From an uncultured Alphaproteobacteria bacterium (GTDB taxonomy: Bacteria; Pseudomonadota; Alphaproteobacteria; RF32; CAG-239), in contig CAJUKS010000001.1 of the NCBI GenBank assembly GCA_910587405.1, positions 197,325-261,324 of the forward strand: a stretch of 64,000 bases of DNA. The letters run 5' to 3'. Each line of letters starts with the position of its first letter. The first letter of the stretch is position 1. The position numbers and the translations under genes are program-made. Shown piece after piece: positions 29,211 to 30,701 of this stretch. The notes under the pieces were generated by a model, which was given only the letters and a program-made list of their open reading frames with translations, did not search any database and was not told where the DNA came from.

Positions 29211-29987
29211 ATGTTGAATAATTATGACTTGAATGAAGATACTTTTGAATCTCAATTAAAAATCTCGCCATTACTTTCTGAAAAGAATCCTTTTAAGAAG
29301 TTTATGTATGATTTAGAGAATAAAACACAACATGGATGGCTCTATAAAATATTTTGTATAATATGTTTATGTTATAGTGTGGGTATGCAAATTTGGGTAT
29401 TTATGTATAATAATCAATATTCATGGGCTACAATGCCTTTAACCATTTCTTTATGTGTCTACATCTTCCTAAATTATAGTTATATATTTTCTCGTAATGA
29501 GGAAAGTATAGTAAATAAAATAAAAAATACGTATTGGCAAATATTTTTCATTATATATATCAGCATACTATTAGGAATTTTGATAATAAATTATATTATA
29601 TCTCCCTCTAATAATCCGTGGTATATAAAATTTTCTTTAGATAATTATTTTTTCATTTATTCCATTACCGTTGGTTTCCTTATTCATGTTGTTTTTTTAT
29701 TTAATAACACTTTTATTTTGTATATGTATTTTCAAGCAATTTTGGGTAGTCAAGGGGAACAAAAAAGATTTTATATATTAGCAAATTTATTATCTCCTGT
29801 CATTTGTGTTGCTATAATATGGGCAACCTATGATTCTTTTCTTACAAAAAAGTATAACATTTTTTTTCAATCTTTATGTCTTTTTTTTGAAGGATTCTTG
29901 TCATATACAGTTTTGTATATCTTCTCCATTTTTTCATTATATATTTTTCGTAAATTTTCTTTATATATCAATCGGTTCTATAAATAA
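29211..29987 (+). CDS. AT-rich polytopic membrane protein (about 6 TM), unknown function
   Basis: 258 aa, very rich in F/I/Y/L/N, with low-GC codons unlike the surrounding genome. The TAA stop is followed 15 nt later by the next membrane ORF. Confidence 0.45.
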   Translation: MLNNYDLNEDTFESQLKISPLLSEKNPFKKFMYDLENKTQHGWLYKIFCIICLCYSVGMQIWVFMYNNQYSWATMPLTISLCVYIFLNYSYIFSRNEESIVNKIKNTYWQIFFIIYISILLGILIINYIISPSNNPWYIKFSLDNYFFIYSITVGFLIHVVFLFNNTFILYMYFQAILGSQGEQKRFYILANLLSPVICVAIIWATYDSFLTKKYNIFFQSLCLFFEGFLSYTVLYIFSIFSLYIFRKFSLYINRFYK

Positions 29988-30002
29988 GTCGAAGGATTTC
30001 AC

Positions 30003-30701
30003 ATGTCTGATGTAAATGTTTCTGAAACTATTGTTTTTTCGCAAAAAATGAAGGTTCTTTTAACAAAAACATGCGTATTAATATTTTGTATTAATGCTAT
30101 TTTTATGATGTTTAGAGGGGCAGGGATAGTTAAGAATAGCTTTTTAATACCAATATTTTTATGTTTTTTTTGGTCTTTAATAACATATTTTTTTAATTAT
30201 TTTTGCAAAAAAAATCAATTAGTTAAAATTATGCTTTTTTTTATGATATGTTCAACCGTTATTTGCATGATAATTTATTTTTTAGCTTTGAGGTATCCTT
30301 GTCTGAATTCAGCACACTTAACAGTATGTAGTTTTTTTAGGAATAACATTGAAATAATTAGAGCCCTTTCCTCATATTATTCTTTATCTTTCTCAGCATC
30401 AATGTCTATTGTTTCCCTGTTTTTGATATGGTCTGAAAGTAATATTCCAGTAAAAAAAACAAACCTTATTTTAATCGTAGGAAATTTAATTTTATGTTTC
30501 TTGTTAGGAGGTATGTACTTTTTTAAAAAAGATTTGTTTTATTTAGTAATTATGATTTTTCTTTTATTTCCTTTTGTTGGGGGTAAAGAGTATAAAAATA
30601 TATATTTTTCAGAGGAAAGATTGTTTTTCGTAATAACGTTTATTATGACATTTTTTCCTCTAGTATTTCTTCTATCTGATTTTATGGCATCGCCTCTTTA
30701 A
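30003..30701 (+). CDS. AT-rich polytopic, Cys-rich membrane protein, similar in composition to the preceding ORF
   Basis: 232 aa with 5-6 hydrophobic helices and many Cys. It ends 12 nt before the RTX gene start (an RBS aaggag precedes the RTX ATG). Confidence 0.45.
   Translation: MSDVNVSETIVFSQKMKVLLTKTCVLIFCINAIFMMFRGAGIVKNSFLIPIFLCFFWSLITYFFNYFCKKNQLVKIMLFFMICSTVICMIIYFLALRYPCLNSAHLTVCSFFRNNIEIIRALSSYYSLSFSASMSIVSLFLIWSESNIPVKKTNLILIVGNLILCFLLGGMYFFKKDLFYLVIMIFLLFPFVGGKEYKNIYFSEERLFFVITFIMTFFPLVFLLSDFMASPL

Follow-up and report, generated by a model that had tools for sequence, protein, structure and literature searches.

Two AT-rich membrane-protein genes beside an FrpC-like RTX gene: candidate immunity genes of an N-terminally exchangeable, type I-secreted protein in an uncultured alphaproteobacterium

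The closest characterised precedent for the locus described here is the FrpD–FrpC pair of Neisseria meningitidis, in which, as here, an RTX protein with an internal self-processing module (SPM) is exported by a type I secretion system (T1SS) and the product of an upstream gene is specific for its N-terminal part; FrpD is encoded upstream and binds the N-terminal part of FrpC (PMC5233953). An effector/immunity reading has already been published (PMC5233953, PMC6759196); experiments back it for Smlt3024 of the Smlt3025–Smlt3024 pair of Stenotrophomonas maltophilia, a T4SS effector homologous to RTX N-terminal regions. The function of FrpC-like SPM-RTX proteins has been puzzling since the 1990s. 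In an uncultured alphaproteobacterium, the position upstream of such an RTX gene is occupied by two genes for membrane proteins, here called TM1 and TM2. FrpD and Smlt3025 are beta-sheet lipoproteins, whereas TM1 and TM2 are polytopic, helical and without sequence similarity to them; exchangeable N-terminal cassettes with upstream orphan arrays are present here, and we found no description of these for the Frp proteins.

Polymorphic toxins of the CdiA-CT/CdiI, Rhs and MafB types (PMC3482391, PMC11630599) share several traits with the locus: a variable toxin that meets its constant delivery region at a conserved junction, a co-varying adjacent immunity gene, retained orphan immunity genes, and arrays of displaced toxin/immunity fragments that keep a homology handle. 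Export here is by a T1SS, whereas the 2012 census of polymorphic toxins (PMC3482391), in a text search, names the type I route solely for classical large RTX toxins in the background section and does not contain the word 'T1SS'. The polarity is also inverted, with the candidate toxin at the N-terminus and the candidate immunity gene and orphans upstream, and the junction is the SPM instead of the VENN or PxxxxDPxGL motif of known polymorphic toxins. Colicin immunity proteins, like the CdiI proteins that go with ionophore toxins, reside in the inner membrane.

Hydrophobic helices characterise the CDI ionophore toxins, whose CdiI partners are highly polymorphic and pair-specific (PMC11630599), and CdzI is a predicted 3-TM immunity protein for the glycine-zipper toxins CdzC/D, which are exported, as here, by a T1SS (PMC5380434). 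No sequence relationship of the locus proteins to the CdiI, pore-forming colicin immunity or CdzI families was detected; TM1 and TM2 (about 6 TM segments, 230-260 aa) are larger than those proteins, and a very large RTX protein bears the candidate toxin as its head, in place of the C-terminal domain or small peptide of those systems. The RTX bacteriocins of Rhizobium, Xylella and Agrobacterium are T1SS-exported and inhibit other bacteria, according to PMC3034196; the present locus resembles them in RTX type and export route.

The window analysed is a stretch of 64,000 nucleotides (contig CAJUKS010000001.1, positions 197,325 to 261,324). TM1 (258 aa; 29211..29987) and TM2 (232 aa; 30003..30701) are encoded on the + strand, co-oriented with the RTX gene directly downstream, as a first-pass annotation of the sequence had placed them; the gaps, given there as 12-15 nt, are 15 nt between TM1 and TM2 (29988-30002) and 12 nt between TM2 and the RTX gene (30702-30713). 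A Shine-Dalgarno-like AAGGA(A/G) lies 7-9 nt before each of the three starts. A search of 27500-31000 turned up no terminator-like site on the + strand, which fits a single transcript without demonstrating one; the three genes may be co-transcribed. A promoter scan, with fewer sites than in shuffled sequence, was uninformative. The RTX gene adjoins its own exporter genes on the - strand, for an HlyD-type type I secretion periplasmic adaptor (24057..25520; NCBIfam TIGR01843, 387.6 bits, cutoff 208.65) and an HlyB-type type I secretion ABC permease/ATPase that has a C39-like domain at its N-terminus (25462..27615; TIGR01846, 1028 bits, cutoff 725; precomputed Pfam matches to Peptidase_C39, ABC_membrane and ABC_tran).

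Both genes had been described as GC-poor and rich in F, I, Y, L and N, with about six TM segments, and these features hold: TM1 has a GC content of 0.238 and TM2 of 0.249, while the flanks on either side are at about 0.48; F, I, L, Y and N together account for 54% of TM1 and 49% of TM2 residues; and, by hydropathy, TM1 has 5-6 TM segments and TM2 has 6. Both are real, conserved genes for polytopic membrane proteins, with long frames, homologues and dN/dS values of 0.14-0.28. Their distinction from RtxC-type acyltransferases was borne out, as neither has an HlyC/RtxC match and both are polytopic, not soluble proteins of about 170 aa; searches of Pfam, NCBIfam, PADLOC and PHROGs gave no family match for either, including any described immunity family. 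The label of a compositionally similar tandem pair stands for composition and fails for sequence: pairwise BLASTP for paralogy gave a best E value of 4.8, i.e. no similarity. Nor do the two form a matched pair that serves the present RTX protein, since they are unrelated and TM1 belongs to a displaced head of that protein.

The 2447-aa RTX protein is FrpC-like and has an internal SPM (32745..33275, + strand; Pfam PF26745), which serves the cassettes described below as their conserved junction and as a recombination handle. A local Pfam search of this region did not report the SPM family, so its identity was confirmed against the FrpC SPM structure (PDB 6SJW; phmmer E 4.8e-43, 166 aligned residues); in FrpC itself, the SPM corresponds to residues 415-591. 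The alignment opens at the Pro of RS|PLVIDLDGDG. The scissile Asp-Pro of FrpC is replaced here by Ser-Pro (ETRS|PLVIDLDGDG), as in most relatives, and Asp-Pro was found at the SPM edge only in L058, L071, L083, L085, L087 and L088; since the known clip-and-link chemistry needs Asp-Pro, release of the N-terminal module is uncertain. The conserved body (33276..38057, + strand) consists of repeated units of about 420 nt (repeat families D1-D11) and the C-terminal end, with precomputed Pfam matches to HemolysinCabind and HCBP_related, and is 96% identical to that of L009, a sister strain of the same species. With the HemolysinCabind nonapeptide repeats and the adjacent HlyB and HlyD genes, the protein has the C-terminal RTX repeats and dedicated T1SS of FrpC-like SPM-RTX proteins, and its C-terminal end presumably carries the secretion signal.

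N-terminal to the SPM, the protein starts with a domain of about 200 aa (30714..31343, + strand), a candidate cysteine hydrolase of the permuted-papain type. In an alignment of eight sequences (21-29% identity), H21, G23, C112 and N113 are invariant ('HxGY...NCN'). The His and the NCN-motif Cys at a helix start that are typical of PPPDE are present, with C112 beginning a helix in a low-confidence AlphaFold2 model (single sequence, pLDDT 38.7). Pfam Peptidase_C97 (PF05903) matched one of the eight members weakly (E 0.076), and hhalign against the DeSI structure 3EBQ aligned the NCN motif alone (probability 4%); the PPPDE/Peptidase_C97 resemblance is not significant and serves as a lead to a candidate fold. 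Next come an additional RTX nonapeptide block and an acidic/Pro-rich linker (31344..32744, + strand; HemolysinCabind within residues 1-829, Pfam E 2.6e-25), both part of the imported N-terminal module; their GC content of 0.438 lies between those of the cassette and the conserved body, and the blastn breakpoint is at 32715. Neither the present N-terminal module nor module B, its counterpart in L009, has a sequence match in Pfam or the PDB.

Within this one species, the window and the L009 locus, with flanks 95-99% identical, differ only between 30030 and 32714. In L009, TM1 is followed directly by a 1686-aa RTX gene with module B. Homology to the window continues through 30029, breaks, and resumes at 32715, and window 30030-32714 stands in place of L009 10820-11350 (blastn); the replacement segment comprises the body of TM2 and the 667-aa His/Cys-domain module. 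All that the window keeps of the old module B is its first nine codons, MSDVNVSET. With their Shine-Dalgarno site, these codons (30003..30029, + strand) once opened the displaced module-B RTX gene, and, fused onto TM2, they now serve as its start; the L009 RTX protein begins with MSDVNVSETEAQS, matching this origin. Among the contigs read for TM1, 18 had the window-type arrangement and four the L009 type. The window-type genomes are all identical across TM1 and TM2 and for this reason give no signal of selection within the allele.

Homologues of TM1 are 54-63% identical to it (dN/dS 0.14-0.19) and form six clusters, every one of which (6/6) lies inside SPM-RTX cassette arrays. In the related loci, TM1-family genes always sit before module B, a 185-aa hydrophobic Gly/Ala-rich module: a TM1-family gene (57-63% identity) followed by module B (67% identity) occurs in L009, L002 and L015, where the displaced head persists. 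Module B and related modules share a hydrophobic Gly/Ala-rich stretch of 30-40 residues; the label 'glycine zipper' was discarded, as small-xxx-small motifs occur in many but not all of them. The pairing of a hydrophobic candidate toxin with a polytopic partner is seen for the TM1 family in relatives, while module B is gone from the window. A profile of the TM1 family with L023_8608 reached a 'YENKLSE' membrane family (256-265 aa) over nearly the full length (E 4e-7; no match in a reversed-sequence control), and hhalign of the two families gave E 3.5e-5. In the pairs examined, the module that comes after a member of this superfamily has a hydrophobic Gly/Ala-rich stretch. Near the N-terminus, the motif NP[LF]K[KQ]...E.xT is strongly conserved across the superfamily. 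An AlphaFold2 model of TM1 from a six-sequence alignment has six long helices at low confidence (pLDDT 44). TM1-family genes remain intact where the module has been deleted (the window and L001-L006), with module B cut to nine codons in the window and to 20 codons in L001. TM1 is an orphan, because its module was replaced in the window strain and the cognate candidate toxin head was thereby displaced; it is a candidate orphan immunity-like gene.

TM2, with 6-7 TM segments, lies inside the replacement segment and is the candidate immunity-like partner of the present module. It arrived with that module and, of the two proteins, is the one that pairs with the current head, in agreement with the earlier suggestion of a remnant of the donor locus. 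Its sole homologue among 1.84 billion cluster representatives, P0008, is 37% identical (E 1e-23; dN/dS about 0.28), and the alignment begins only at TM2 residue 11. The P0008 gene has no RTX neighbour; it lies beside a tRNA-Lys gene in a genome of 35% GC, next to genes for LprI and Ank exported proteins, which are domain types of the upstream partners in other SPM-RTX loci. A lack of similarity between the two proteins, together with homologues confined to unrelated contexts, had been named as refuting evidence, and for TM2 this holds in part, as it is not similar to TM1 and its sole homologue has no RTX gene beside it; the link was recovered through a wider survey of modules and partners, because the adjacent partners of its module type are all polytopic membrane proteins. 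Divergent membership of TM2 in the PKRYWF, cluster 1 or cluster 17 partner families was rejected (hhalign E 0.068 and 0.6). TM2 and these families look alike, for example in a late 'FP' motif, a likeness that composition may explain. TM2 has no detectable similarity to the rest of the partners recorded for its module type, so that position and the class-level pattern are the grounds for pairing it with the present head. This head has no hydrophobic stretch.

The survey covered 78 metagenome loci and those collected earlier, with an adjacent partner defined by a gap of at most 120 nt. The segment N-terminal to the SPM is swappable among related loci, where N-terminal modules fall into 33 BLAST clusters and every one of them stops at the junction xP[LI]xxDLDGDG, and each module type keeps its own upstream gene. 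Among 54 unique adjacent pairs of module and upstream gene, 28 partners have at least three TM segments, and the membrane partners span 2-11; pairs with the same module shared a partner cluster in 42 of 118 cases against 3.8 expected, a value reached in none of 5000 permutations that were not corrected for ancestry. The window's module type (cluster 0) has a partner with 4-9 TM segments 13-36 nt upstream in all ten unique adjacent pairs. Non-hydrophobic modules, as a contrast set, pair with exported soluble proteins with Ank, LprI or PD40 domains. The attachment of module types to particular upstream genes, usually ones for polytopic membrane proteins, fits the immunity-like role that had been listed as a candidate. 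Fixed-junction alternative modules, a co-varying adjacent gene and orphan cassettes with a homology handle, three of the features by which polymorphic toxins are recognised, are present.

Long perfect repeats of SPM coding sequence delimit the cassette arrays; L002 has three 300-nt perfect SPM repeats, and orphan ORFs carrying SPM occur in L001, L002, L009 and L015. Upstream of TM1, the window contains relic DNA of older RTX copies (27947..28340, + strand; repeat family D9): a 109-aa ORF (27947..28276) is weakly similar to the region just past the SPM (L009 RTX residues 387-417, BLASTP E 5.8e-4), and 28297-28337 is an 88% copy of the SPM 5' end (32802-32842). Further on lies the truncated 5' end of a 'PKRYWF'-family membrane-protein gene (28646..28839, + strand; about 65 codons, 2 TM segments), the first 25 residues of whose product are 48-56% identical to L001_11903, L002_8365 and L002_14112, proteins of 182-197 aa with 5 TM segments. 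This fragment is joined in frame to an SPM fragment of 338 bp (28840..29177, + strand), which is a perfect direct repeat of 33029-33366 in the 3' part of the SPM-coding region (100% identity, repeat family D5, blastn) and marks the end of an orphan cassette; ORF 28646..29182 has a precomputed Pfam SPM match.

We consider it reasonably probable, from this comparative sequence evidence, that TM1 and TM2 are inner-membrane immunity proteins of an N-terminally polymorphic toxin delivered by a T1SS. The conserved body, i.e. SPM, RTX repeats and C-terminal end, would be the delivery part and the exchangeable module N-terminal to the SPM the effector; each module would be imported together with the gene immediately upstream, and older units of upstream gene, module and SPM fragment would accumulate as orphans 5' of the expressed gene. 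TM1 would be the inner-membrane partner of module B, whose hydrophobic Gly/Ala-rich segment is hairpin-like and which is putatively a membrane-inserting toxin of the pore-forming type. As an orphan, TM1 may still protect its strain from sister strains in which the old toxin is made. TM2 may act in the producer's inner membrane to neutralise the present module, while it is being exported and when it comes back in from neighbours.

An unlikely alternative, though the strongest of those considered, is that TM1 and TM2 are FrpD-like accessory factors of the RTX protein (export helper, tether, or folding or activation partner) and not immunity proteins. Besides the FrpD precedent itself, which has been discussed as adhesion-related (PMC3034196), a dedicated chaperone or tether would also give module-specific pairing, and the conserved motif of the TM1 superfamily could dock a conserved partner. 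However, the persistence of intact TM1-family genes after module deletion speaks against the export or tethering function that had been listed among the candidate roles, as an accessory factor would then be useless and an immunity gene would not; short-loop polytopic proteins are expected in the inner membrane and cannot hold a protein beyond the outer membrane; and the diversity of partners, from soluble Ank, LprI and PD40 proteins to proteins with 2-11 TM segments, is more in keeping with the neutralisation of toxins of many kinds than with one export step common to all. Slightly less probable still is that the RTX protein targets eukaryotic host cells and that the membrane proteins merely shield the producer's inner membrane before export and play no part in competition between bacteria. 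The genome is a MAG from a gut commensal, the SPM-RTX proteins FrpC and ApxIVA have been studied in the context of host interaction, and deletion of the ApxIVA SPM attenuated virulence (PMC7078468); orphan partners without modules and two alleles that co-circulate in one species are, however, a strain-versus-strain pattern, and FrpC, according to PMC6759196, showed no cytotoxicity or virulence role, which had prompted an antibacterial hypothesis.

That the two genes are unrelated hitch-hikers on AT-rich foreign DNA beside the RTX gene is improbable. The GC content of 24-25% against 48% in the flanks and the missing family annotation of both proteins would agree with it, as would the different context of the only TM2 relative, beside a tRNA-Lys gene in a genome of 35% GC; but all six TM1 homologue clusters are in SPM-RTX arrays, spacing is tight (12-36 nt), partner and module co-vary over 54 pairs, and P0008 is itself adjoined by exported LprI and Ank proteins, partner-type domains elsewhere. 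Chance open frames in non-coding AT-rich DNA, which the extreme composition and the lack of database annotation might suggest, are effectively refuted: the longest open frame in each of 2000 shuffled versions of 29191-30713 had a mean length of 63 codons and a maximum of 144, against 258 and 232 observed, and the frames stay open in homologues at 37-63% amino-acid identity with dN/dS of 0.14-0.28 and have a Shine-Dalgarno site each. The only apparent disruption, in TM2 of L010, is a run of Ns at a scaffold gap.

If the reading of TM1 and TM2 as immunity proteins is true, the routes by which polymorphic toxins are delivered would include the T1SS besides the T5SS, T6SS and T7SS, in a mirror-image architecture, and the published effector/immunity guess for FrpC and FrpD would gain a testable comparative framework. 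For FrpC-like SPM-RTX proteins in general, we give even odds that they are a large class of T1SS-delivered interbacterial polymorphic toxins with an N-terminal toxin and an upstream immunity gene. The same balanced estimate applies to the SPM as both a conserved recombination handle and a calcium-triggered junction, and the Ser-Pro variant bears on the NeissLock protein-engineering chemistry, which needs Asp-Pro. With no greater and no lesser confidence, TM1 (with 'YENKLSE') and TM2 may each found a new family of membrane immunity proteins; two membrane immunity candidates, a hydrophobic module and a His/Cys module would then be defined as new families, and these unannotated families are abundant in human and mouse gut Alphaproteobacteria. 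The odds are likewise even that two or more competing alleles are present in the mouse-gut alphaproteobacterial population and that both toxins leave window-type strains unharmed through immunity; if so, two alleles in one species, one of which keeps the immunity gene of the other, would constitute a natural experiment.

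The host is an uncultured gut alphaproteobacterium, represented at species level by the mouse-gut MAG MGBC103387; its relatives include 'Azospirillum sp. 51_20' and others from human gut metagenomes. The RTX gene (30714..38057, 2447 aa) is preceded by two genes for membrane proteins, TM1 (29211..29987; 258 aa, 5-6 TM segments by hydropathy) and TM2 (30003..30701; 232 aa, 6 TM segments by hydropathy), and starts 12 nt after TM2; an AAGGA(A/G) Shine-Dalgarno-like site is found 5' of all three start codons. The first-pass annotation had described this pair of ORFs as AT-rich, dominated by F, I, Y, L and N, and distinct from RtxC-type acyltransferases, and this description is confirmed: GC content is 23.8% in TM1 and 24.9% in TM2 (genome, ~48%), the five residues together make up about half of each protein, and searches of Pfam, NCBIfam, PADLOC and PHROGs gave no family match for either, RtxC/HlyC acyltransferase included. 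By sequence criteria both are coding genes and not AT-rich non-coding DNA, because the longest open frame in any shuffle of the region was 144 codons, TM1 has homologues (54-63% identity, dN/dS 0.14-0.19), and a search of 1.84 billion cluster representatives gave a single homologue for TM2 (37% identity, E 1e-23). Comparison of the two proteins gave no mutual similarity. A 49-bp insertion that seemingly breaks TM2 in one related locus (L010 ~11000, corresponding to window 30193) contains a run of Ns and was ruled out as a mutation, being a scaffolding artefact. Two AlphaFold models were made (TM1; RTX N-domain), both too poor for use.

In a sister genome (L009, GCA_948591725.1; L014 is of the same type), whose flanks are 95-99% identical to the window, a 1686-aa RTX gene comes straight after TM1. 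Homology is continuous through 30029, is interrupted, and returns from 32715; on this comparison, window 30030-32714 took the place of a 531-bp segment encoding module B, the 185-aa hydrophobic, Gly/Ala-rich N-terminal module of the sister RTX protein. The incoming segment carries a 667-aa N-terminal module along with the TM2 body. TM2 owes its start codon, its ribosome-binding site and its first nine codons (MSDVNVSET, 30003-30029) to the old RTX gene, and the alignment identifies its reading frame as a chimera with a start derived from the displaced RTX module gene. The TM2 homologue (P0008) is alignable only from TM2 residue 11 on, and the NCBI annotation starts the product at Met16 (P0007, 217 aa). 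No copy of module B was found elsewhere in the 64-kb window. Of the contigs read for TM1, 18 are arranged like the window and four like L009. We consider this history of replacement well supported and hold it with high confidence.

Loci L009, L002 and L015 each have a TM1-family gene (57-63% identity), 16 nt, and then module B (67% identity). L001 and L003-L006 retain an intact TM1 homologue; module B is reduced to its first 20 codons in L001, and L003, L004 and L006 have that short ORF called as well, downstream of their TM1 homologue. A profile built from the TM1 family and L023_8608 matched, over nearly the full length, a group of 256-265-aa 'YENKLSE' membrane proteins (E 4e-7; no match in a reversed-sequence control), and hhalign linked the two families with E 3.5e-5. 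In the pairs examined, genes of this superfamily sit before N-terminal modules of ~170-210 aa with a long hydrophobic Gly/Ala-rich stretch, often with IDxYWDD at its end. The segment preceding the TM helices (TM1 residues 17-42 and the aligned 'YENKLSE' region; alignments A2 and A4) is far more conserved than the helices themselves, which hints at a common interaction partner; in the 'YENKLSE' family, NKLSExLSDDNPLKQKLxxMETxTD is nearly invariant.

The present module begins with a domain of ~200 aa with invariant His21 and Cys112 (HxGY ... NCN; 8 sequences, 21-29% identity), for which a likeness to PPPDE is only a lead, followed by an extra RTX block and a linker. In 10/10 unique adjacent pairs of this module type, the protein encoded upstream has 4-9 TM segments and its gene lies 13-36 nt away; by BLAST the partners form six or more unrelated clusters, with TM2 as a singleton, and profile comparison of TM2 with the other clusters gave no link. 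The sole homologue of TM2 (L012 8684-11430, GCA_028706255.1; 35% GC genome) is not beside an RTX gene. This homologue is flanked by an LprI+Ank protein and an LprI-domain protein, with a tRNA-Lys gene adjoining, a setting that could represent a small immunity-type gene island; in other RTX loci with a self-processing module (SPM), LprI- and Ank-domain proteins are upstream partners as well.

The present module adjoins an FrpC-like SPM, which matches the FrpC structure 6SJW (E 4.8e-43) beginning exactly at the Pro of RS|PLVIDLDGDG. The preceding residue is Ser (window 32742-32747, RTX residues 677-678), whereas the known clip-and-link chemistry requires Asp-Pro. Ser-Pro occurs at most of the ~100 junctions found in relatives, a proportion biased by the Ser-Pro SPM with which the search was seeded; among L001-L093, Asp-Pro is found only in L058, L071, L083, L085, L087 and L088. 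In 78 metagenome loci found with the SPM, plus loci gathered earlier, the N-terminal modules form 33 clusters with one common junction to the SPM. Upstream genes and modules form 54 unique adjacent pairs, with 28 partners of at least three TM segments, 18 of one or two, and eight of none; partners of the non-hydrophobic module variants are exported soluble proteins with Ank, LprI or PD40 domains. Pairs with the same module shared a partner cluster in 42/118 cases (3.8 expected; reached in 0/5000 permutations), in a test that ignores shared ancestry.

Read from sequence, the locus has the anatomy of a polymorphic toxin system whose polarity is inverted, in which a conserved delivery body would carry a swappable head, with the partner gene just upstream and orphans gathering 5' of the expressed gene. 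TM1 and TM2 are, somewhat more probably than otherwise, immunity-like inner-membrane proteins of successive cassettes, TM1 as an orphan and TM2 as cognate to the current module. The first-pass annotation had also proposed export or tethering factors; intact partner genes outlast the loss of their module, which argues for immunity over such roles. The earlier interpretation is partly supported, its immunity-like and donor-locus parts fitting the evidence and the remainder being disfavoured. In L015 ('Azospirillum sp. 51_20'; 14071-14917) an expressed RTX gene with a third module type, predicted to be beta-rich, follows two small genes for membrane proteins (146 and 140 aa), so that two upstream membrane genes can also occur as a genuine pair.

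The immunity proteins of pore-forming colicins offer a parallel to polytopic partners of hydrophobic modules. Such partners also resemble CdzI, in a system dependent on type I secretion (T1SS) (PMC5380434), and the CdiI proteins of CDI ionophores, which are polymorphic and specific to their pair (PMC11630599). An antibacterial role for FrpC, as an effector exported by a T1SS and neutralized by FrpD, was proposed earlier on the basis of Smlt3024, an effector with homology to RTX N-termini whose immunity protein is FrpD-like (PMC6759196). Neither N-terminal cassette arrays nor membrane-protein partners nor Ser-Pro SPMs were described in the literature covered by full-text searches and reading.

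The exporter genes (HlyB-type ABC exporter, 25462..27615; HlyD adaptor, 24057..25520; both minus strand) lie upstream and divergent, directly beside polysaccharide-synthesis genes (18839-24051; epimerase, UDP-galactopyranose mutase, glycosyltransferases) whose synteny is kept in all sister genomes. A 1157-aa open frame antisense to the RTX repeats (32943-36416, minus strand), also present in L009, is taken to be a by-product of GC-rich Gly/Asp repeat coding. The interval between exporter and TM1 is filled by remnants of older copies: a copy of the SPM 5' end (28297-28337, 88% identical to 32802-32842), a weak relic of sequence downstream of the SPM, and an ORF (28646..29182) with the first ~65 codons of a membrane-protein gene fused in frame to the 338-bp SPM repeat described below. 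In L002-like arrays, cassettes are bordered by perfect 300-nt repeats within the SPM coding region and a repeated spacer. The arrays of human-gut relatives (L002 9673-15811; L001 12853-15170) have a regular unit of ~2.0 kb and a spacer of ~300 nt (copies 76-97% identical), and their orphan SPMs share the breakpoint AWNEVKIWQDKN; the perfect repeat of the window begins at the same motif, EAWNQIMIWQDRN. This direct repeat of the SPM 3' half (28840-29177 = 33029-33366; 338 bp, copies 4189 bp apart) is identical without mismatch, which points to a recent event or to gene conversion that is still going on. Recombination between the two copies would remove the current module together with TM1 and TM2 and join the truncated membrane-protein fragment to the RTX body.
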